NCBI RefSeq assembly: GCF_000981785.2
Contig: NZ_CP011304.1
Span: forward strand, 2,910,001 to 2,942,000
Origin: Microcystis aeruginosa NIES-2549
GTDB lineage: Bacteria > Cyanobacteriota > Cyanobacteriia > Cyanobacteriales > Microcystaceae
Direction: 5' to 3'
Length of the DNA stretch: 32,000 bases
A program made the translations under genes and the position numbers. Positions 6,056 through 27,218 of the stretch are shown one piece after another (within the stretch, counting starts at the first letter, position 1; every line of letters starts with the position of its first letter). The notes beneath the pieces were generated by a model. That model ran no database searches. It worked only from the letters and a program-made list of their open reading frames with translations, and had not been told where the DNA came from.

Positions 6056-7237
6056 TTAGGCTTCGCTGGTAAAGCGAGAATTGGGAATAGCATAAAAAAC
6101 TGACTCTAGACCATTCTCACCATGAGGTATAAGAAAATAAGAGTAATCACTGCATATACTATTTACCAATAAGGGAAGTCTCCATAAATGATCCTGTAGA
6201 TGATAAGTTGAAATAGCCAAGATAGGAGTATATTTCTCGATTATGTTACTTGCTCCCAGAATAGTATCTATTTCTGCACCTTCAATATCCATCTTGATAA
6301 ATGTTGGTGCTTCATCAGCAATAGTTTCATCAAGGGGAACTACATCTACTTCTAAGTTTCCTTGACTGGAAATTGCCGATCCTTCTGAACCAGCCGCTAA
6401 AAATCTCAGTTTTTCTCGTTCTTTACCTGTAGCATTTTGGTAAATTATCACCTTGGCTTGAAGCTGATGATCTAAATTAGAAAGATATGCTTTTAAGTTT
6501 GTTACATTAATTGGATCGGGTTCAAAACAAATTATTTTCTCAATTGAATCTCCCTGAAGATCAATAAATGTCTTCAGGGTATCACCATCAAAAGTGCCAC
6601 AATCTACAAAAACTTCCTTTTTTAAAAGAGGCCTTAAGAAAGTCGGGAAATATTGTATTTCCTGAGACGAAAATAAACCATCAGACTCTAGTAAAATTCG
6701 CCACTTAATCTGCTTCAAATATTCCCGCTTAGATTCTGTATCTTGCCAAAGATCAAAAGCTGCGATAACATCCCCCGTTTGTTCATAAATTTTGTGAGGT
6801 AAATCAAGATAAAAATGAGGCAAAAATTCTTGTGGATGGCACCAAAAAAAGACGGCACACAGGGCAACATTTTGACACCCTAATTGATGTAATTGCTCCT
6901 GAATCAAAGTCAGGCTATTCTCTCGATTAAATACGGTAATAAGGAATAAAGCATTTTGACCATAATTAAGAGCAGCAATTTCAGGGGAAAGAACCTCAAC
7001 TCCCTCAAGTTTTGTATTCCAGATAGCCGCATTATTATCAGCAAAAGCCACTGGTTCTATGCCAATCTTCCGTAAACCTTTAAGACACTTTCTTCCTAAG
7101 TTGCCAGAGCCAAATAAAACAACTTGTCCTTGAGATTTTTCTAACAACCCGCCAAAAACAGAGGTTTCATAATTGATGACGGCATCAATCGGCTTTGCTA
7201 GAAGGTTTTTAAGATCAACTAATAAGTCGGAAGTCAT
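6056..7237 (-). CDS. FkbM family methyltransferase with N-terminal Rossmann-like domain
   Basis: FkbM signature blocks VFVDCGTFDGDT, ICFEPDP and FIKMDIEGAE. N-terminal VVLFGSGNLGRK...VAFADNN...GVEVLSPE module. Confidence 0.8.
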   Translation of the reverse strand: MTSDLLVDLKNLLAKPIDAVINYETSVFGGLLEKSQGQVVLFGSGNLGRKCLKGLRKIGIEPVAFADNNAAIWNTKLEGVEVLSPEIAALNYGQNALFLITVFNRENSLTLIQEQLHQLGCQNVALCAVFFWCHPQEFLPHFYLDLPHKIYEQTGDVIAAFDLWQDTESKREYLKQIKWRILLESDGLFSSQEIQYFPTFLRPLLKKEVFVDCGTFDGDTLKTFIDLQGDSIEKIICFEPDPINVTNLKAYLSNLDHQLQAKVIIYQNATGKEREKLRFLAAGSEGSAISSQGNLEVDVVPLDETIADEAPTFIKMDIEGAEIDTILGASNIIEKYTPILAISTYHLQDHLWRLPLLVNSICSDYSYFLIPHGENGLESVFYAIPNSRFTSEA

Positions 7238-7263
7238 AGGCTGTTAAGTATCTAATGTATTGG

Positions 7264-8448
7264 TTAAGGTTGGGTAAAGCGAGAATTAGGAATAGCATAA
7301 AAAATGACATCTTGACCATCGTGCAGATGGGGTTCAAGAAAGAAAGAATAATCTTGGCACATACTCTTGATTAATAAGGGAATTCGCCATAAATGATCCT
7401 GTTGGTGATAAACTGAAATTGCCAAAATTGGGGAATGATTCTTGATAATCTCTCTTGCTCCCATAATTGCATCTATTTCCGCCCCCTCAATATCCATTTT
7501 AATAAAGGTTGGTGCTTCATTAGCTAAAACTTCATCAAGAGAAATTGCTTCTATTTCTAAAGTTCCTTGGCTGGAAATTGCAGATGCACCCGAACCTGTT
7601 GCTGAAAATCTTAGCTTTTCTCGTTGCTTGCCTACTGCATTTTGATAAATAATTATTCTATCTCGAATTGTGCTATCTAAATTAGATAGAGAATGCTGGA
7701 GCTTTTCAACATTCTGAGGATCGGGTTCAAAACAAATTACTTTTCCTATAGCACCCGCATTGATAGCCGCTAAAGATTGAACGGTATCCCCATCAAAAGC
7801 ACCACAATCAATAAACACTTCTTGGTTGATTACAGGTAACAAAAAACGAGGGAAATAAGTGATCTCTTTGTAAGCTGACAAGCCGTCAAAATCTAATAAT
7901 ATTCTACATTTTAATTGATTAAGATATTGTTCTTTTGAGTAGTCATCTTGTAGAATCATAAAAGCGGCGATGACATCCTCGGCTTGCTCATAAATTTTGT
8001 GAGGCAAATCGATGAAATAGTAAGGTAAAAAAAACTGATTATATCGCCAGAAAAGAGCGATAAAAGAAGCGACATTGAGAAAACCTATTTTTTGTAATTG
8101 ATTTCTAATTGTGATAAAACTGCGGTTTCTTCCTATGCTCCAAATGGCCACTATAAATAAGACATTATCGCCATATTTTTTCATCACAGTTTCAGGAGAA
8201 AGAACCTCAACCCCTTCAATCTTTGTCCCCCACAAAGCCATATTATTATCAGCAAAAGCCACTGGTTCTATGCCAACACTCCGCAAACCAGCAAGACACT
8301 TTCTGCCTAAGTTGCCAGCCCCAAACAATACAATCTGTCCTTGAGATTTTTCGAGCAATTGCTCGAAAAGAGAACTTTCATAATCTTTTATAGAAGCAAT
8401 TGGTTTTTTGAGTAAATTTTCTAATTCGAGTAATAAAGAAGAAGACAT
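7264..8448 (-). CDS. FkbM family methyltransferase, tandem paralog of 6056-7237
   Basis: Same length (394 vs 393 aa) and collinear with the neighbor: VFIDCGAFDGDT, ICFEPDP, FIKMDIEGAE. Roughly two-thirds identical by eye. Confidence 0.8.
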   Translation of the reverse strand: MSSSLLLELENLLKKPIASIKDYESSLFEQLLEKSQGQIVLFGAGNLGRKCLAGLRSVGIEPVAFADNNMALWGTKIEGVEVLSPETVMKKYGDNVLFIVAIWSIGRNRSFITIRNQLQKIGFLNVASFIALFWRYNQFFLPYYFIDLPHKIYEQAEDVIAAFMILQDDYSKEQYLNQLKCRILLDFDGLSAYKEITYFPRFLLPVINQEVFIDCGAFDGDTVQSLAAINAGAIGKVICFEPDPQNVEKLQHSLSNLDSTIRDRIIIYQNAVGKQREKLRFSATGSGASAISSQGTLEIEAISLDEVLANEAPTFIKMDIEGAEIDAIMGAREIIKNHSPILAISVYHQQDHLWRIPLLIKSMCQDYSFFLEPHLHDGQDVIFYAIPNSRFTQP

Positions 8449-16954: not shown

Positions 16955-18160
16955 TCACCATAGTCTCCTCGGATTAGAGGGCTGTGGTGAAGGCTCCACG
17001 GTGGGCGCGGTGGTTGGCTGTGAGGGGGTTAGAGAAGGGGTATTTCCTCCCCCTAAGGATTCTTGGAGCTTGTCTCGCAGTTTTTTGGCGGTATCGGAGT
17101 CAGGATTAATTTTGAGAGCTTGTTCGTAGGCGGCCAGCGCCTCTTGGTGGCGTTTCCAGTAGGTCAAGAGCAGACCTTTCCCGTACCAAGCTTGATAGAG
17201 TTGAGCATCGAGTTGCAAGGCTTTTTCATAGGCGGCATAGGCGAGGGCTAATTGTCCTAACCGCCACATTTTATTGCCTTGATTAAGCCAGTTTAGGGGA
17301 TTAGTATCGTTCTTATTGGGAACTTCAAAAGCCTTGTATAATTCATCACCAATTTCTCGCAAAGATAAGGCATTGGGAGGCGAACTTTCGACATTTATCT
17401 GCCCTTGAATGCCAGACTGGGGTGCTAATTTCAAAAAAGTAGTGATGGGAATAGCGAGACTAAAGCCAATTGGCACGGGAACCTTTTCGATTTTTTCGGC
17501 TTCATTTTGTCCGTGAACTGCGATGACTCGTCCATTGATATCCAACACTGGACCGCCACTCATGCCCCCATAGGTGACACTGGTATAAACTATCTCATAC
17601 CCCAACTCCGGGGGAAATATTTTCAGCAAGGGTGTAATGTCCTTGGGTAGCACTTTCCCCACATTGAACAATCGTTTCCGCTTGCCGATAAATTTCGGGT
17701 CGGGCCATCCAGAAGCAAAAATAAATTGTTCGTCAGCTACTTGATAGTTACCCAAGGTCGCCAATTGATAATTTTGGTCGCTCTGAAACTGCACGAGGGC
17801 TAGATCTACTCCTGGTAATTTTTTGATGCTATTGTAATCGAGCGGATATTGCTTGCCATCCCAGGTAATAATTTTTAGTTGATCGTAATAGAACTTGCAG
17901 GCATCTCTAGCATCTTTACAGATTACATGACTAGCAGTAAGAACAGTATAAACCCTTCCTTCTTTGGCAATAATTGATCCAGAGCCATTAGCAGTAATTT
18001 TCCCATTCGCCCCCTCTTCTTCTGAGGGGATTAAAACGGTAATCTTTTCAGCAGTTTTTTCTATCTGCTCAGTTGTTGATGCCTTAGCAATCTGAGGAGA
18101 AACCACAAACACCGCTATACTAACTAGGGCGGCGGAAATTTTCAAGAAATTGTTGCTCAT
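16955..18160 (-). CDS. Secreted trypsin-like (S1) serine protease fused to C-terminal TPR repeats
   Basis: Signal peptide (ISAALVSIAVFVVSPQIAKA). Catalytic-triad contexts are VLTASHV (His), VDLALV (Asp) and GMSGGPVLD (Ser). TPR-like AYAAYEKALQLD, AWYGKGLLL and ALAAYEQALKINP precede a P/S/T-rich tail. Confidence 0.8.
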   Translation of the reverse strand: MSNNFLKISAALVSIAVFVVSPQIAKASTTEQIEKTAEKITVLIPSEEEGANGKITANGSGSIIAKEGRVYTVLTASHVICKDARDACKFYYDQLKIITWDGKQYPLDYNSIKKLPGVDLALVQFQSDQNYQLATLGNYQVADEQFIFASGWPDPKFIGKRKRLFNVGKVLPKDITPLLKIFPPELGYEIVYTSVTYGGMSGGPVLDINGRVIAVHGQNEAEKIEKVPVPIGFSLAIPITTFLKLAPQSGIQGQINVESSPPNALSLREIGDELYKAFEVPNKNDTNPLNWLNQGNKMWRLGQLALAYAAYEKALQLDAQLYQAWYGKGLLLTYWKRHQEALAAYEQALKINPDSDTAKKLRDKLQESLGGGNTPSLTPSQPTTAPTVEPSPQPSNPRRLW

Positions 18161-18188
18161 CTGGTTTAAAAATACAGTTGAGTGGAAT

Positions 18189-19094
18189 TTACCAGAGGGG
18201 TGTGGGAGCGGGATTCTTTTCTCTTGGGGTTGACGAGGATGGAGAAGGAAAATCTTCCGAGAAAGTGGGTTCTCTATGGGTGGGAAGCGATGGGGGTGAC
18301 ACTGCGGGCCGTTGCCGACTGGAAGCAGATGGAGAAGATGACCCCGATTTTAAAAAAGTCCCGATAGGAATCGCCCAACTTAATCGACTCATTTGTTCCC
18401 ACAGTGCTGGTGAAGTCACTGTTCCATCAGCAAAAACGTAGGATTTACCCCAGAGAGGATAAGCATGAATCCCGTTAATACCAATAACTTTACCTTGCCG
18501 ATTCAGCAGCGGTCCGCCACTCATGCCATTTTTAATCTTATTGGTATAGCCGATTTGGTAGCCCCCCGAAAAGGATTTATCACTCAAAAGCGACACTTTA
18601 CCAACGGTGAAGGTAAAATCAAAGGGATAGCCGGCGGCGAAAACTTCATCTCCGATAGTGAGATCATCGACATTAGCCAAATCAGCAATAGAATAAACTT
18701 GGCTACTGCGAAAAGAAACTAAGCCTAAATCATAATTATTCAAGCGAACTGTTCTGACCAACTCACCCCGATGTATCTTGCCGTCAGGGGTTTGTATTTG
18801 CCAAACCCGAGAGCGATACCGCCCTAAAACATGGTCATTCGTGAGGACTTTGTAGGAAGAACCCTGCTTTTCAACTAAAATGCCCGAACCCCAGCCTTGC
18901 CCTGATAACACTTTAACGGTAATTGCTCTGGCTAACTGAAGCAGCTGTTGTTCTGAAAGTTGTTGAGAGCTATAGGCATTGGCCCGGTTAGGTTCCAGAG
19001 CGGGAGCATAGCTTGGGACAGCAAGCAAAGGTGTGGACAGTCCCAATAATAAACCGCCCACACCAGCCAAAATTCTTTTTATCGCCCGACTCAC
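18189..19094 (-). CDS. Secreted trypsin-like (S1) serine protease
   Basis: GTG start and a signal peptide (ILAGVGGLLLGLSTPLLAVPSYA). Catalytic contexts are VLTNDHV, YDLGLV and GMSGGPLLN, followed by a P/S-rich C-terminal tail. Confidence 0.8.
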   Translation of the reverse strand: MSRAIKRILAGVGGLLLGLSTPLLAVPSYAPALEPNRANAYSSQQLSEQQLLQLARAITVKVLSGQGWGSGILVEKQGSSYKVLTNDHVLGRYRSRVWQIQTPDGKIHRGELVRTVRLNNYDLGLVSFRSSQVYSIADLANVDDLTIGDEVFAAGYPFDFTFTVGKVSLLSDKSFSGGYQIGYTNKIKNGMSGGPLLNRQGKVIGINGIHAYPLWGKSYVFADGTVTSPALWEQMSRLSWAIPIGTFLKSGSSSPSASSRQRPAVSPPSLPTHREPTFSEDFPSPSSSTPREKNPAPTPLW

Positions 19095-19110
19095 TTGATT
19101 ACTACGCTCC

Positions 19111-19211
19111 TATCTATAGAACTAGAAAAGTTTACCAAACAGCGGGCGTTGGGTTTCCTTGCGTCAACCCAACCTACCTTATCTATAGAACTAGAAAAGT
19201 TCACCAAGCAG
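19111..19211. repeat. Two 32 bp direct repeats (period 69 bp) flanking an 8 bp-stem hairpin
   Basis: TATCTATAGAACTAGAAAAGTTTACCAAACAG (19111-19142) and TATCTATAGAACTAGAAAAGTTCACCAAGCAG (19180-19211) differ at 2 positions. Between them lies GTTGGGTT-N10-AACCCAAC. Each repeat contains the palindrome TCTATAGA. Confidence 0.7.
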
Positions 19212-19824
19212 AACCGCCTGATGGTTTTTGGGGCGACTGTTCGGGGGAAGTCCCCGGCGCCGGAGAAGAGGACGAACCCGTAGCGGGATTTGTTTCCACG
19301 GGAACGCTTTCTAGGAATTTGCTGAAATCGATAGTGGCAGAATCCGATGAGCTTTCAAACAAAGGACTGCTGCTGGCTCCTTGCCGGAGGCCAAATAACT
19401 GCGCAAGTTTTTGCCTCGCATCATCTCCTCTCTTGAGGGTAAATAATAGGTTAGCACTATTAGCCCGTTCTCGCCCACTACTGGAGACATAGATGACTGG
19501 TTCACCATTCAGATAGCCCGTGTTAATATTACCAATTCCGCCTGGTCGAGAGTTCAGGCTATTGAATCTTCCAGTTACTTCTTCACACCGTCGCATGGGA
19601 GTGTAACCGGAACCACTAAAATAATCAGAAGACCAACGAATCACCGCTCTGTATTCATTAGGGCCGGATTGGACAAAAGTTGTGGGAACTCCCACATGGG
19701 GACCCGTCACTGGCACAAGACACTCGAATCTGGTTTGAGCTTGGCTCGGTGATTGTAAGGTCAAGGCAGCTCCTACACCAATCAGAGCAATGGTCAGAGT
19801 TTTTGTCAAAGTTTGTAGTTTCAT
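19201..19824 (-). CDS. COP23-domain-like secreted protein
   Basis: Start at ATG 19824 (MKLQTLTKTLTIALIGVGAALTLQSPSQAQ signal peptide). The mature part (TRFEC...GVPTT...AVIRWSSDYFSGSGYTPMRRCEEVTGRFN...GEPVIYV...LLFTLK) matches my recollection of the cyanobacterial COP23 family pattern. A P/S-rich tail follows. Confidence 0.6.
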   Translation of the reverse strand: MKLQTLTKTLTIALIGVGAALTLQSPSQAQTRFECLVPVTGPHVGVPTTFVQSGPNEYRAVIRWSSDYFSGSGYTPMRRCEEVTGRFNSLNSRPGGIGNINTGYLNGEPVIYVSSSGRERANSANLLFTLKRGDDARQKLAQLFGLRQGASSSPLFESSSDSATIDFSKFLESVPVETNPATGSSSSPAPGTSPEQSPQKPSGGSAW

Positions 19825-19984
19825 TGTTCTTATCCTAATCCTGCAAAGGGACTCCGTTGTACACTTCAAAGGTAGCTTTTATTTTTCCGCAAAACAAACA
19901 AAAGCAAGGCCTTTGCAACAATTCTTATTTTTTGGGATTACCCTTTCTTCAAACTCCTTTAAGAGAGCAATCAGATGAGTTCGT

Positions 19985-22811: not shown

Positions 22812-23048
22812 ATGACAAAATTAAGTCCAAAAGTTACCGCAATTATTCGTTCTGGTGAACAACAAGGATATGTAGGTGAATGCGTGGAAATTTCGATTGT
22901 CACCCAGGGAAATACCTTAGATGAGGTGGTTAATAATCTCCAAGAAGCCATTTTACTGCATTTAGAGGGAGAAGACCCCAGGGAGTTCGGTCTAGTTGCC
23001 CAACCTTTTCTACAGATTATATTTGAGTTACAGCCAGAATATGCCTAA
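22812..23048 (+). CDS. hicB: HicB family antitoxin (type II TA system)
   Basis: 78 aa. The short HicB/UPF0150-like pattern (GYVGECVE..IVTQG.TLDE...NL.EAI.LHLE) is present. The stop overlaps the ATG of a hicA-like reading frame (ATGCCTAA). Confidence 0.7.
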   Translation: MTKLSPKVTAIIRSGEQQGYVGECVEISIVTQGNTLDEVVNNLQEAILLHLEGEDPREFGLVAQPFLQIIFELQPEYA

Positions 23049-23123: not shown

Positions 23124-23232
23124 CCCCCCTCCGACATTGGGGTAGGGTTGATTCATGAATCAACCCTACTATTAATCAACCCTACTATTAATCAACCCTA
23201 CTATTAATCAACCCTACCAACATCGGGGGGGT
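23124..23232. repeat. Repeat-rich insertion: outer imperfect inverted repeats, a central palindrome and a 16 bp tandem repeat (3.6 copies)
   Basis: CCCCCCTCCGACATTGGGGTAGGG ... CCCTACCAACATCGGGGGGG are the outer arms. The palindrome is GGGTAGGGTTGATTCATGAATCAACCCTAC. The unit CAACCCTACTATTAAT is repeated at 23161, 23177 and 23193, with a partial copy at 23209. Confidence 0.65.
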
Positions 23233-23316: not shown

Positions 23317-25182
23317 ATGGCAGAAGAAACGGCGAAAATCAAGCTTTATCGGAAAACCTATCAACTTCCCCAACTAAATCGCCCCGATTTATTGGTTTTG
23401 CAGGATCAGATTCAAGAAAGACAGCAACTGATTAAAACTGGAAAACGGGTCCGCAATACATGGTTAGGATTGAGGAAAAAAGAAGAACCCCTCAATTTCG
23501 AGGAAACTTTTCAAGAATTGGAAAGATTAGTCGGGGACTATAACCAGTTAATCGGATTTCTCACCGACCATAAGGATGAATACCGACGGTTTTTCCAGTC
23601 ACTGACCGAGGAAATCAAGGAGGCAGTGGCGGTTAAATGCCAGAAATTGGCAGAAACAGAGCGAAAACGCCAATCTTTGGAGAATAGCATCGGCTCGGCC
23701 GACCTGCGAGATACCCTGAGACTACAGAAACAGCAGATTTTCCGCACCGTGATTCTTGTTGGTCGCGCCAGCTTGCTTATGCTCAAGAAAATCGACTTAA
23801 TCAGCGAAAGTATCCAGAAATTAGCCGAAGATCAGGATACACAAAAACAGGTTTTCTCGAAAATGATCGGCGAGTTGAACGGGTACAAACAAGTGTATCA
23901 GTTGCAGCTGGAGTTAGATAATCTGGAAAAAGAAGCGATCGAAATGGCCAAAGTAGCCATTAATCTAGAACAATACCTAAAACCAATTATCGGGCAGTTT
24001 CAAGGCTTAATCGATCGAGTAGTGACCATTGACGGGGAACTTTCCCGCAGTGTCAGCGAAGTGGAATCCCTCGTCCAGAACATTCTTAGTTCCGAATCGG
24101 CCGTATCTTTCCGCAAAAACGAGAATCTATCGGCTAGTTTGCTCAATTTCCTCGTCACCAGCGAAGAAAAGCGCGGCCGTTTAGCGATCGCATTAGAGCG
24201 AGCCGAGCAGGAAGGATGGCAATGGACAGACGTGGAAATCCCCGACGAGGAAATCGAACTGGAAACCGCCATTCAACGCATCAACAACCATGTAATCGAG
24301 AGAGTTGGGAATTTTACCACCTCCGTCGTCGGTGATTCTCCTATTCCTCCCCCTTCCCAACCAAAGACACCCCTAGACAATAAAACTCCTTCTTCTCCAT
24401 CAGATTGGATGATTCCATCTAAATCTGCTCAACCAGAGACACCCCTAGACAATAAAACTCCATTTACCGAAAACCTACCCAATGGGATAACACTAGAGAT
24501 GGTGAACTTACCAGCAGGTCAATTTCTCATGGGATCTCCTGACAGTGATCCCGATGCTAGGGATTGGGAAAAGCCTCAACACCAAGTTAAAGTCAACAGT
24601 TTTGCGATTGGGAAATATCTGGTGACTCAGGCACAATATGAAGCGGTAATGGGAACCAATCCCTCTTATTTTAAAAACAATCCGCAAAATCCGGTAGAAA
24701 TGGTTACTTGGAACGATGCTCAAGCCTTTTGTCAGAAATTGAGTCAAATAACCGGGAAAACCTATCGCCTCCCCACAGAAGCGGAATGGGAATATGCCTG
24801 TCGTGCGGGGACTACTACTCGCTATTATTTCGGTGATGATGCCAATCAGTTAGGAGATTACGCTTGGTATATCGGAAATCCTCAGCAGACAACTCATCCT
24901 GTGGGCCAGAAAAAGCCCAATGCTTGGGGACTGTATGACATGAGTGGCAATGTTTGGGAGTGGTGCGAAGACGATTGGCACGATAACTATATCGGAGCGC
25001 CAAAGGATGGATCTGCGTGGACTATCAATAATGATAATCGTTCTCATCCCAAGTGTCTGCGCGGCGGTTCTTGGAACATCAACCCTTATGACTGTCGTTC
25101 TGCCGACCGCGGCAGGAGCAACCCCGTCTACGTCAACGACGACGACGGTTTTCGGGTTGCGTGTGTCTCCCCAGGACTTTAA
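23317..25182 (+). CDS. DGR variable (target) protein: N-terminal helical domain of unknown function plus C-terminal formylglycine-generating-enzyme-like (FGE/SUMF1, CLec-fold) domain carrying the VR
   Basis: The C-terminal about 230 aa carry FGE-sulfatase blocks (LPAGQFLMGSP, HQVKV.SFAIGKY.VTQAQYEAVMG.NPS, PVE.VTWNDAQAFC, YRLPTEAEWEYACRAG, NAWGLYDMSGNVWEWCED, LRGGSW, GFRVA). The last 41 codons are the VR. Confidence 0.85.
   Translation: MAEETAKIKLYRKTYQLPQLNRPDLLVLQDQIQERQQLIKTGKRVRNTWLGLRKKEEPLNFEETFQELERLVGDYNQLIGFLTDHKDEYRRFFQSLTEEIKEAVAVKCQKLAETERKRQSLENSIGSADLRDTLRLQKQQIFRTVILVGRASLLMLKKIDLISESIQKLAEDQDTQKQVFSKMIGELNGYKQVYQLQLELDNLEKEAIEMAKVAINLEQYLKPIIGQFQGLIDRVVTIDGELSRSVSEVESLVQNILSSESAVSFRKNENLSASLLNFLVTSEEKRGRLAIALERAEQEGWQWTDVEIPDEEIELETAIQRINNHVIERVGNFTTSVVGDSPIPPPSQPKTPLDNKTPSSPSDWMIPSKSAQPETPLDNKTPFTENLPNGITLEMVNLPAGQFLMGSPDSDPDARDWEKPQHQVKVNSFAIGKYLVTQAQYEAVMGTNPSYFKNNPQNPVEMVTWNDAQAFCQKLSQITGKTYRLPTEAEWEYACRAGTTTRYYFGDDANQLGDYAWYIGNPQQTTHPVGQKKPNAWGLYDMSGNVWEWCEDDWHDNYIGAPKDGSAWTINNDNRSHPKCLRGGSWNINPYDCRSADRGRSNPVYVNDDDGFRVACVSPGL
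25057..25180 (+). repeat. DGR variable repeat (VR)
   Basis: 118 nt (25057-25174) align without gaps to TR 26724-26841. There are 13 mismatches, all at TR adenines. Weaker similarity extends 6 nt further. Confidence 0.9.
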
Positions 25183-25215: not shown

Positions 25216-25245
25216 CCCGCCCTTAGGCGGGTCGATTTTTTTTTT
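25216..25245 (+). terminator. GC hairpin plus T10 tract downstream of VR (terminator; possibly also the DGR target-recognition hairpin)
   Basis: CCCGCC (25216-25221) pairs with GGCGGG (25226-25231) around the loop CTTA. TCGA and ten T residues (25236-25245) follow. It starts 34 nt after the target-gene stop. Confidence 0.65.
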
Positions 25246-25292
25246 GAGAAAAGAATGTTAAGATTTATTACAGATAAAGAGAGGTAAAGTCG

Positions 25293-25646
25293 TTGAGCGA
25301 ACTATCAATTATCCAGAAGATGTACGATTTAATTAAATGGTATGTCCCAATCCTAACACGAATTCCCAAAACGCACAAATTTACCCTAGGAGAAAGACTG
25401 ATCAATAACTTGTATAGTGTACTAGAGGAACTCATTCTGATTAAATACGAGCGAGAAAAATTAGATAGATTGGTAGCTCTCAACGCTCGACTGGACGTTA
25501 TCCGTTATCAAACCCGACTCCTATGGGATTTTTCTCCGCTTTCTCCAGAAAGATACGAATATGTGAGTAAATTGATAGAAGAAATTGGTCAAGAGCTAGG
25601 TGGCTGGATCAAACAGCAAAAAAATAAACGGACACCAACGAAATGA
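25293..25646 (+). CDS. avd: DGR accessory variability determinant (Avd; four-helix-bundle protein)
   Basis: 117 aa, basic and helical. The typical Avd / 23S-rRNA-IVS-family N-terminus is present ([27 protein letters not shown]). A TTG start lies 8 nt after AAGAGAGG, with ATG 25320 as an alternative. The stop overlaps the RT start (ATGA at 25643-25646). Confidence 0.8.
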
Positions 25647-26701
25647 AGCGATACGGCAACCTCTACACGGATATTATCAACTTCCAAAATCTCACCCTAG
25701 CGGCCAATAAAGCGCAGAAAGGAAAAAGATTTAAAGAGAATGTTTTAGAATTTAATTATAATCGAGAGCGAGAATTAATTATTTTAGAGCAAGAATTACG
25801 AGATAAAACCTACCAGCACGGAAACTATAAGACTTTTTATATTCGAGAGCCAAAAATCCGCATGATCTCGGCTGCACCCTATAGAGATAGAGTCGTTCAT
25901 CACGCCTTATGTAATATAATCAATCCAATTTTCGAGCGGACTTTTATTAATAATTCCTATGCCAATCGAGTGGGATTCGGTACTCATAAAGCTTTAAGAA
26001 AGTTTATTCAATACTCCCGAACTAGCCGCTATGTTTTGCAGTGCGACATCGAGAAATATTTTCCCAGTATCGATCACGAAATTCTTAAAATAATGATCGA
26101 AAAAAAAATCAAATGTCGCGATACCCTCTGGCTAATCGAAAGCATCATCGACAACAGTAACGAACAGATTCCAGTTAACCATTGTTTTGATGATGAGGAT
26201 TTGCTAACCTCTATATCTAGAAGAAAAGGTTTGCCGATGGGAAATTTAACCAGCCAGTTTTTTGCCAATATTTTTCTGAACGGACTAGATCATTTTGTTA
26301 AAGAAAACCTCAAAGTCAACAAATATTTACGCTACGTCGATGATTTTAGCTTATTTTCCGATGATCGAGAGTTTCTCTGCTACGCTCGACAGGAAATCGA
26401 GAAGTATTTAGCTTCAATAAAGCTAAGAATCCATTCCGTTAAGAGTCAACTATTCGAGACAAAAATCGGAGCTACTTTTGTTGGATTTCGAGTATTTCCC
26501 GACCGCGTGAAGGTAAAAAATGATAATCTACATCGAGGAAGAAGAAGAATTAAGCGACTCAAACAAGAGCTGGCAAATGGTACGATCACGCTCGAAGAGA
26601 TGTCTCGTTCTTTACAAAGTTGGTTCGCACATCTTCAACACGGTGATACACGACAGTTAAGAGAAAAGCTATTTGATTCTCTCATCTCGATGAGAAATTA
26701 A
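25643..26701 (+). CDS. DGR-type reverse transcriptase (RNA-directed DNA polymerase)
   Basis: 352 aa with RT motifs 1-7: [49 protein letters not shown] (the GxxxSQ signature typical of DGR RTs) and the catalytic YVDDFSLF. It has no maturase/endonuclease or retron-type extensions. Confidence 0.9.
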
Positions 26702-26723
26702 AGAAGGAGTAGAACAATTTCGA

Positions 26724-26847
26724 CTGCGCGGCGGTTCTTGGAACAACAACCCTAATAACTGTCGTTCTGCCAACCGCAACAGGAACAACCCCGACAACGA
26801 CAACAACAACAACGGTTTTCGGGTTGCGTGTGTCTCCCCAGTACTTT
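26724..26847 (+). ncRNA. DGR template repeat (TR), part of the template RNA
   Basis: Starts 22 nt after the RT stop. By my count it has about 32 adenines in 118 nt, mostly as 13 AAC codons in the VR reading frame. The 3' end GGTTTTCGGGTTGCGTGTGTCTCCCC has no adenine and is identical in the VR. Confidence 0.9.
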
Positions 26848-26967
26848 CCCTCACCAGAGTCGGTGCATGAGAATGTATCGAGCGAGTAAGGAAAAGTCCA
26901 GTTCTATTCCCGCGATGCTGGCGACAGTATCCGAACATTGCCACGAAATCGGTTAGCTTGGTAGGAG

Positions 26968-27001
26968 ATATCCGAACAGTTAACCGATTTCGGATATTTT
27001 T
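26968..27001 (+). terminator. Hairpin plus T tract downstream of TR (candidate end of the DGR transcript)
   Basis: ATATCCGAA (26968-26976) pairs with TTCGGATAT (26989-26997) around a 12 nt loop, followed by TTTT. An alternative pairing is CGAAATCGGTTA (26943-26954) with TAACCGATTTCG (26981-26992). Confidence 0.5.
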
Positions 27002-27101
27002 GGTGTTGAGGTTTCAGTGCCTCTGTCGTCTCTCTTTTGATACTAAATCCGTTGAGTATAGGCTACATATCAGGACAGGCACTCATGCAAGAGGCAAAAG
27101 G

Positions 27102-27218
27102 GGCGTTGCTGATTTGATATCTGAATCTTCTTTTCTGGTATTTTTAAAACCTAGAGCCAAACTAACTTTTGCCCGGGAACCTGCACATTTGGCATTCATA
27201 CCTTGATTCAGCAACGCC
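27102..27218. repeat. MITE-like element or long hairpin (117 bp) bounded by perfect 11 bp inverted repeats
   Basis: GGCGTTGCTGA (27102-27112) and TCAGCAACGCC (27208-27218) are the arms. Immediately upstream is GGCACTCATGCAAGAGGCAAAAGG, the reverse complement of the motif at 21260-21283. Confidence 0.4.

Follow-up and report, generated by a model that had tools for sequence, protein, structure and literature searches.

A conserved N-terminal domain joined to a retroelement-diversified C-type-lectin head in Microcystis aeruginosa NIES-2549

Background

Diversity-generating retroelements (DGRs) are numerous in cyanobacteria, and the purpose they serve in the cell is debated. Multivalent avidity is an established principle for one DGR target, the phage tail-fibre protein Mtd, and another target, the surface lipoprotein TvpA, is of the FGE subtype, as is the protein described here. 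The variable proteins of cyanobacterial DGRs are mostly predicted to be cytosolic, and both regulatory tuning and multivalent avidity have been proposed for them (PMC7517822), while fusions of the FGS domain have been proposed to act as an 'antigen sensor' in conflict systems (Kaur et al. 2020, PMC7159879; Dore et al. 2024, PMC10907252). The subject of this report is a DGR within a 32,000-nucleotide stretch of Microcystis aeruginosa NIES-2549 (contig NZ_CP011304.1, positions 2,910,001 to 2,942,000, hereafter the window), and in particular the N-terminal domain (N-domain) of its target protein, which carries the diversified C-type-lectin (CLec) fold at its other end.

The target protein matches over its full length, with 100% identity, a 621-residue 'serine/threonine kinase' of M. 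aeruginosa NIES-2549 (P0231, AKE65307.1). Vallota-Eastman et al. 2020 list this DGR with AKE65309.1 as its reverse transcriptase (RT) and AKE65307.1 as its variable protein; their Table S1 describes AKE65307.1 as 'CLec/ possible kinase', and in their Table S3 the protein is entered under 'CLec & Unknown N-term Extension' but not under 'Putative Non-Cytoplasmic Paralogs' (PMC7517822). One of the criteria for calling kinases in that study was the NCBI annotation itself (PMC7517822). A role of cyanobacterial DGR targets as sensors or regulators in the cytosol has likewise been proposed in print (PMC7517822, PMC7159879, PMC10907252). An earlier note on this DNA, made from the letters alone, had described a hypervariable binding domain tethered through a proline-rich linker to an N-terminal module of no assignable family, and had proposed a sensing, regulatory or defence role; its core observation and general interpretation are already on record for this very protein.

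The N-domain itself has never before been defined. What is new here is the N-domain family with its repertoire of fusion partners, the length polymorphism of the linker, the presence or absence of the retroelement cassette, and the correction of the kinase annotation. One 'unknown N-terminal extension' can now be described as a modular domain common to GUN4, TPR and WD40 proteins. Our tentatively preferred explanation is that the target is a cytosolic two-module protein in which a non-enzymatic coiled-coil scaffold presents a hypervariable binding head.

Results and discussion

The N-domain family

The N-terminal region that the earlier note could not assign to a family is indeed without an assignment: residues 1-340 gave nothing above noise in Pfam (best E 0.038) or NCBIfam and no match in PADLOC or among PDB sequences, and a profile search of PDB sequences with the N-domain returned noise only (BRG1, CheA, eL22). 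When 1.84 billion cluster representatives (50% identity clusters) were searched exhaustively by profile, with the window protein as seed, the search recovered a family of 191 representatives at E<=1e-3, 98 of them at E<=1e-30. In all full-length members listed, most of which are 400-750 residues long, the match starts within the first ~60 residues, and profile matches span positions 1-345 in relatives as low as ~20% identity. The family shares the motifs IKIY..TY.LP.L, DY..I..L..HK..Y..FF, LLG.A.LL.LKKI.L..L..LAEDQ..Q and NFE.Y....GPFQ.LI. Judged by these profile matches, the N-domain is a discrete and strongly conserved family of ~330 residues, always N-terminal, that occurs with and without CLec; the module to which the DGR-diversified domain is tethered is a real domain.

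What follows the N-domain varies. The C-terminal partners of 81 full-length members are FGE/CLec (32), GUN4 (13), TPR (4), Lcl_C, PQQ-type beta-propeller, LRR and HEAT (3 each), and WD40 and LRV (2 each), and two giant members of the family carry NPCBM and LamG domains. These are binding domains throughout, with no enzyme effector among them, and no Pfam or NCBIfam family covers the N-region that the 81 members have in common in any of them. The nearest relatives outside Microcystis (31-52% identity) bear GUN4 in place of FGE. The domain composition of the family shows the N-domain preceding interchangeable binding domains, to one of which it is joined here by a Pro/Thr-rich spacer of variable length.

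The first reading to be affected is the one in the databases, according to which the protein is a Ser/Thr kinase and the DGR tunes the substrate or ligand specificity of the kinase. The names 'serine/threonine kinase' and 'pkn1' in the source annotations and the entry in Table S1 of Vallota-Eastman et al. speak for it. Against it, neither Pkinase nor any kinase-like family matches in Pfam, even at E<=1, or in NCBIfam, the N-domains of the 81 family members are likewise free of kinase-family matches, the N-region is predicted by AlphaFold2 to be coiled coil, and Table S3 of the same paper files the protein under an unknown extension (PMC7517822). Because no kinase domain is found in the domain searches, these annotations of the protein and of its Microcystis orthologues are unsupported; with no kinase catalytic domain in the protein or in 81 relatives, a kinase identity is effectively refuted. 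The kinase name most likely goes back to Chlamydia Pkn1, having spread by way of the FGE-like C-terminus of that protein. The 'Ser/Thr kinase' annotation corrected here had entered published domain counts.

All 27 named genome loci of the family are cyanobacterial, in genera including Microcystis, Crocosphaera and, in the Nostocales, Nostoc, Calothrix, Scytonema, Stigonema, Dolichospermum and Sphaerospermopsis. In a distant branch of the family there is a protein from a Magnetospirillaceae metagenome-assembled genome (P0267, a relative of L030 8001-9050), and the related P0163 lies on a contig of 55% GC, adjoining genes for a transglutaminase-core protein and a TRAP transporter; the family may not be strictly cyanobacterial. 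Microcystis sp. BLCC-F210 has two N-domain+FGE paralogues at different chromosomal sites (L007, L008), which are 93% and 83% identical to the N-domain of the window. The earlier note had asked for a survey of whether the domain recurs with or without DGRs, and the answer is that it recurs in 191 clusters with many partners other than CLec and with no adjacent RT in other genera.

Location and predicted structure of the N-domain

Export signals were assessed heuristically, from hydropathy, charge, cysteine position and start codons. The N-terminus of the protein is charged (MAEETAKIKLYRK), the sole Cys within the first 340 residues is at position 108, and the top 19-residue Kyte-Doolittle mean, 1.42 at residue 144, is under the usual 1.6. 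An in-frame stop codon is found 11 codons 5' of the start, and neither ATG nor GTG nor TTG occurs in the interval, which leaves no space in which a leader peptide could be hidden. Among the 81 family members, none has a 12-residue window with a Kyte-Doolittle mean >=2.0 in the first ~41 residues, and the hydrophobic-helix site reaches >=1.6 in four. By these heuristics the target has no leader, lipobox or transmembrane-grade segment of the kind expected in classical secreted or lipoprotein targets, and there are no phage genes nearby. Every available test thus agrees with the earlier note in finding no signal peptide or transmembrane segment, and speaks against a classical surface receptor.

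The N-domain was modelled with AlphaFold2. An alignment of 6 sequences gave an unusable model (pLDDT 53.8), and a rerun with 45 diverse sequences aligned (mean pLDDT 68, pTM 0.58) was better only for the first 200 residues. The model predicts long helices at residues 61-124, 128-204 and 217-257; residues 205-310 form further helices with low confidence, and a final helix at residues 315-338 is confident. Family-averaged hydrophobicity has a power peak at a period of 3.5-3.6 residues in the long helices. The N-domain is mostly helical by prediction, but residues 5-58 are not purely so, being predicted as a beta-beta-alpha-beta-beta unit. The helical, heptad-like character that the earlier note read from the sequence fits the long helices and their periodicity and does not extend to this first unit. 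A beta-unit followed by an alpha-hairpin recalls membrane-fusion proteins of the HlyD type, a reading that was rejected on the predicted model, which lacks a membrane anchor and, beyond the hairpin, a second lipoyl half.

When the model was compared by Foldseek with PDB and BFVD, as the earlier note had recommended, there were no matches at E<=1e-3 and no confident match to a known domain. The best matches are non-significant and generic helical bundles (E 0.05-1, probabilities mostly <=0.3, TM-scores <=0.3), namely designed bundles, chemoreceptor signalling domains, SMC arms, BAR domains and ClyA-family toxins. The last of these bear on a distinctly unlikely alternative, abortive infection by a sensor-effector, in which the N-domain would be a latent alpha-helical membrane effector resembling a ClyA-type toxin or a CC-NLR/MLKL bundle, and binding of an invader molecule by the diversified head would free the effector to insert in the membrane and kill or arrest the cell. 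Several ClyA-family toxins recur in the Foldseek list (SmhB, XaxB, MakA, AhlB and ClyA), but their matches are not significant (E 0.15-1, probability <=0.21, TM-score <=0.25) and are mixed with chemoreceptors, SMC proteins and designed bundles, on a model of moderate confidence. The most conserved motif of the family is a hydrophobic helix that is of transmembrane grade in 4 of 81 members, the N-terminal placing corresponds to the effector position in FGS-containing conflict proteins (PMC7159879, PMC10907252), and Microcystis is colonial. Arguing the other way, the protein has no PADLOC match and no NTPase switch, there is no MoxR, vWA or STAND neighbour, and genes for N-domain+GUN4 proteins are found in many cyanobacterial genera amid housekeeping genes, which is hard to square with a suicide effector. 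Of the role in sensing, regulation or defence suggested by the earlier note, the cytosolic sensor or regulator agrees with the published proposals; a role in defence specifically finds no support, given these same absences, the housekeeping setting and the GUN4 fusions.

The DGR and its diversified head

The DGR is complete: the order is target, Avd, RT and template repeat (TR), the mismatches between the variable repeat (VR) and TR are biased to adenines, and the VR is at the C-terminus of an FGE-type target (Table 1). VR and TR are both 124 nucleotides long and 89% identical, with 14 mismatches, 13 of which are at adenines of the TR; all 13 fall at codon position 1 or 2. Differences concentrated in this way on adenines are the DGR signature, and so the premise that this gene is a DGR target is correct. 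The VR/TR comparison shows a C-terminal C-type-lectin (FGE-type) head rewritten at ~13 or more adenine-templated positions, apparently by the adjacent Avd-RT-TR cassette.

A catalytic FGE, EgtB or PvdO is not indicated: the highest NCBIfam score of the target protein, to PvdO, is 148 bits where 500 are required, and every other NCBIfam model scores far under its cut-off. By these scores, the FGE domain here is a non-enzymatic scaffold of the CLec type, as is typical of DGR targets. The GC hairpin just downstream of the VR may be the target-recognition hairpin of the DGR. About 100 nucleotides upstream of the target start codon, at 23155-23217, a 16-nucleotide unit (ATTAATCAACCCTACT) is present in ~4 tandem copies.

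Table 1. Positions of the target gene, its parts and the DGR components in the window
Feature	Position	Strand	Basis or remark
DGR target gene, 621 residues	23317..25182	+	open reading frame (ORF); 100% full-length identity to AKE65307.1
Conserved N-domain, residues 1-340, unnamed and mostly cyanobacterial family	23317..24336	+	profile matches
Predicted beta-beta-alpha-beta-beta unit, residues 5-58, with conserved IKIY..TY.LP.L motif	23329..23490	+	AlphaFold2 (45-sequence alignment), pLDDT 67-88; family consensus
Predicted long antiparallel helical hairpin, residues 61-124 and 128-204	23497..23928	+	pLDDT 70-93; hydrophobic periodicity 3.5-3.6
Helix segment with the greatest conservation and hydrophobicity in the N-domain (IFRTVILVGRASLLMLKKID; family motif LLG.A.LL.LKKI.L)	23737..23796	+	consensus; Kyte-Doolittle maximum, 1.42, in this segment
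Pro/Ser/Thr-rich linker, residues 341-393	24337..24495	+	length variable among Microcystis alleles
Linker repeat, copy 1, QPKTPLDNKTP	24358..24389	+	
Linker repeat, copy 2, QPETPLDNKTP, 1 mismatch against copy 1	24430..24461	+	
FGE-sulfatase / C-type-lectin-fold domain, residues 394-615	24496..25161	+	Pfam PF03781, E 1.1e-54
VR, 3' end of target gene, encoding residues 581-621	25057..25180	+	repeat comparison
GC hairpin CCCGCC-CTTA-GGCGGG followed by T-run, just downstream of VR	25216..25245	+	terminator-like
Avd accessory gene	25293..25646	+	Pfam bAvd PF22296, E 8e-22
DGR RT	25643..26701	+	RVT_1, E 4.3e-23; GNLTSQ and YVDD motifs in translation
TR	26724..26847	+	repeat comparison

Linker and allelic variation in Microcystis

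The direct repeat of 32 nucleotides that the earlier note saw in the linker is real, with 1 of 32 nucleotides different, and extends to 37 nucleotides at 92% identity (24353-24389 and 24425-24461) with a spacing of 72 nucleotides; the number of such pairs expected by chance in a gene of 1.9 kb is, by a rough estimate, ~1e-11. Since no more than 37 nucleotides are repeated, the 72-nucleotide interval does not amount to a clean tandem duplication. For comparison, 70 Microcystis alleles were aligned over the stretch corresponding to residues 330-393, which is 64 residues here and includes the last 11 residues of the N-domain. Its length is 17, 29, 40, 58-65, 93 or 108 residues. Counted by eye, the unit Q-P-x-T-x-L/G-x-N/D-K-T-S/P is absent from the 17- and 29-residue forms, occurs once in the 40-residue form and twice in the 64-residue form, and is more numerous in one 108-residue allele, in which the end of the N-domain is duplicated too. 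Counting by a strict pattern gives too few units compared with the count by eye. The window carries the 64-residue, two-copy allele.

Larger rearrangements are seen among the alleles. In P0248 (665 residues) the end of the N-domain is duplicated along with the linker, in P0242 a TAPGNKTSFTEN unit is duplicated, P0258 is among the alleles with larger linker expansions, and in L003 the FGE part is tandemly duplicated. In these alignments the junction between N-domain and head is a hotspot of indels and duplications. Mean column entropy over the 70 alleles is 0.135 bits in the N-domain, 0.55 in the linker and 1.56 in the VR. Since the N-domain is near-invariant while the linker and the VR vary, the linker duplication appears to be an indel tolerated in a flexible spacer, not a motif under selection; what the earlier note called a duplicated linker looks like one allele of a length-polymorphic spacer and not a functional motif. 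An N-glycosylation sequon of the bacterial type in DNKT was considered and rejected: the PglB sequon has its acidic residue at -2, and here it is at -1.

Nine FGE positions upstream of the VR are also highly variable among alleles (2.1-2.9 bits), at residues 415, 417, 451, 462, 519, 524, 559, 563 and 570 (nucleotides ~24559-25027). This could be the result of mixing of two allele classes, or of selection on residues near the binding site.

A core target gene with an accessory cassette

The synteny of the target gene is the same in other Microcystis genomes, and the 2-kb Avd-RT-TR cassette is often missing from it. In another strain of M. aeruginosa (L041), ~0.5 kb (6934-7436) takes the place of 25250-27218 of the window, with 95-98% identity to the window in the flanks on both sides, and in NIES-843 (L040, 6931-10945) the target gene is followed by IS110 and DDE transposases. 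Neither Avd nor RT was found in the fetched flanks of any of ten species-representative Microcystis loci, some of which lie on contigs that stop not far beyond the gene. So the target belongs to the core genes of Microcystis, and the Avd-RT-TR cassette to the accessory ones.

Strains without the adjacent cassette nevertheless have VRs whose differences from the TR of the window are mostly at adenines, the numbers of differences at A and at other bases being 15 and 1 in L041 (6741-6864), 17 and 2 in L004 (7782-7905), 18 and 2 in L006 (3933-4056) and 15 and 3 in L009 (9654-9777). Adenine-biased VRs in strains with no adjacent cassette imply that a near-identical TR elsewhere has diversified them in trans, or else that they were diversified before the cassette was lost. 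Compared across alleles, VR hypervariability and adenine bias show past DGR activity in the population and not current activity in this strain. A second class of VR/TR alleles (ending ...GFRVVCGAGRTL) has many differences at bases other than A. The division into core target and accessory cassette matters for the reading of DGR activity in bloom metagenomes.

Genomic neighbourhood

The neighbours of the DGR between 15071 and 30605 in the window are housekeeping or unrelated genes and include Iso_dh, NifU, DUF3386, a small HicB-like ORF, DUF29, PurL and COP23. No vWA, MoxR, VMAP, STAND NTPase or EAD/Trypco adaptor is encoded in the target gene or within ~8 kb of it. The small ORF, of 78 residues (22812-23048, + strand), lies between DUF3386 and the target and has weak matches to HicB/UPF0150-like antitoxins (E 0.015-0.05); no partner toxin ORF was identified. 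Two adjacent genes for trypsin-like peptidases, one with a C-terminal TPR, are found with COP23 at 16955-19869 (- strand), 4-6 kb upstream of the target. Effectors of the trypsin-like peptidase type are common in FGS/DGR conflict systems; this group is syntenic in other Microcystis strains, and the housekeeping genes Iso_dh, NifU and DUF3386 stand between it and the target.

In other genera, N-domain relatives are usually solitary amid housekeeping genes (NDH-1, photosystem II, HetZ), with no adjoining RT. In the Nostocales (L014-L027, e.g. L017 5907-10088), an N-domain+GUN4 orthologue is found directly 3' of an ABC exporter gene (ABC_membrane_2 + ABC_tran) at 13 loci and is followed by a conserved ORF of ~138 residues with no family match; further upstream of the pair are nonribosomal peptide synthetase genes (C-A-T-TE), pairs of MvdD-type ATP-grasp genes, or patatin+LamG genes.

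The exporter gene could be taken as a hint that the protein itself is exported, the N-domain being a module for non-classical secretion or trafficking, like LXG and MIX in polymorphic toxins, that would bring the variable head to the cell surface. The architecture of constant N-terminus and variable C-terminus and the rare members with NPCBM or LamG would fit such a module. We nevertheless regard export as very unlikely, given that the heuristics found no signal peptide, lipobox or transmembrane segment in the protein or the family, that the partners GUN4, TPR, WD40 and HEAT are typically intracellular, and that the published localisation prediction did not flag AKE65307.1 as non-cytoplasmic (PMC7517822). 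The adjacency itself does not occur in Microcystis, in Gomphosphaeria or in five further lineages that were examined, and so seems to be synteny confined to one lineage; the neighbourhood of exporter, peptide synthetase and ATP-grasp genes was rejected as a general functional link.

Proposed function

The explanation that we tentatively prefer, a cytosolic coiled-coil scaffold that presents a hypervariable head, would work as follows. As an elongated coiled-coil stalk, the N-domain would oligomerise or attach to a fixed place in the cell and would in this way present the binding head, possibly multivalently. What results would be recruitment, assembly or avidity, and not catalysis. In Microcystis, the DGR would tune which cytosolic ligand is captured by the head, and the length of the linker, which would set the reach of the head, would be free to drift.

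Several points weigh against this scaffold. Both its oligomerisation and its cytosolic location are predictions, the signal-peptide and transmembrane call being heuristic, and the AlphaFold2 model has low confidence at residues 205-310 and an overall pTM of only 0.58. The function of the N-domain is not anchored by any significant Foldseek neighbour in PDB or BFVD, and no conserved operon partner at the loci examined points to a pathway. The moderately hydrophobic helix that is the most conserved motif could equally be a membrane-active element, and a few family members bear the typically extracellular glycan-binding domains NPCBM and LamG.

An unlikely but far-reaching variant is that the N-domain is an undescribed and mainly cyanobacterial signalling or effector domain that turns ligand capture by many heads (DGR-diversified CLec, GUN4, TPR, WD40, LRR, HEAT, beta-propeller) into one common output, for example higher-order assembly or membrane remodelling. 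If so, the family would follow an NLR-like sensor logic with no NTPase switch, and the version in Microcystis would be 'adaptive' through its DGR. For the scaffold as for this variant, the function of the N-domain can be approached in tractable relatives in Nostoc or Synechocystis and then carried to bloom-forming Microcystis; the practical gain will be modest until that function is tested.

Comparison with known systems

Like Mtd of Bordetella phage BPP-1 and TvpA of Treponema denticola, the target described here undergoes adenine-directed mutagenesis of a C-terminal site in a C-type-lectin fold; unlike them, it has no leader or lipobox and has a predicted coiled-coil domain of 330 residues. 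With the ClyA-family alpha-pore-forming toxins and the chemoreceptor, SMC and BAR bundles, the modelled N-domain would share an elongated antiparallel helical hairpin of similar length, but it has no sequence similarity to them and no beta-tongue, hydrophobic head or secretion signal. Cyanobacterial GUN4 fusion proteins possess the same N-domain, with GUN4 where this protein has FGE. GUN4 binds tetrapyrroles and is not diversified by DGRs, and canonical Gun4 has a different, short N-terminal helical domain.

The FGS fusions of NTP-dependent conflict systems resemble this protein in that the other domain is strictly N-terminal to FGS, in that FGS and GUN4 are alternative C-terminal modules in cyanobacteria, and in the concept of a DGR-diversified cytosolic sensor (PMC7159879, PMC10907252). 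The difference from the FGS/VMAP/iSTAND/NACHT systems is that the vWA, MoxR, VMAP, STAND and EAD/Trypco components are missing from this locus, which has housekeeping neighbours. Among the multidomain variable proteins of cyanobacterial DGRs, the characterised modules are kinase, orthocaspase, trypsin, TIR, GAF, GUN4 and CHAT, to which the N-domain does not belong; in its C-terminal CLec/FGE domain with the VR, its N-terminal module other than CLec, its predicted cytosolic location and its order of target, Avd, RT and TR, the protein of M. aeruginosa NIES-2549 is one of their number (PMC7517822).

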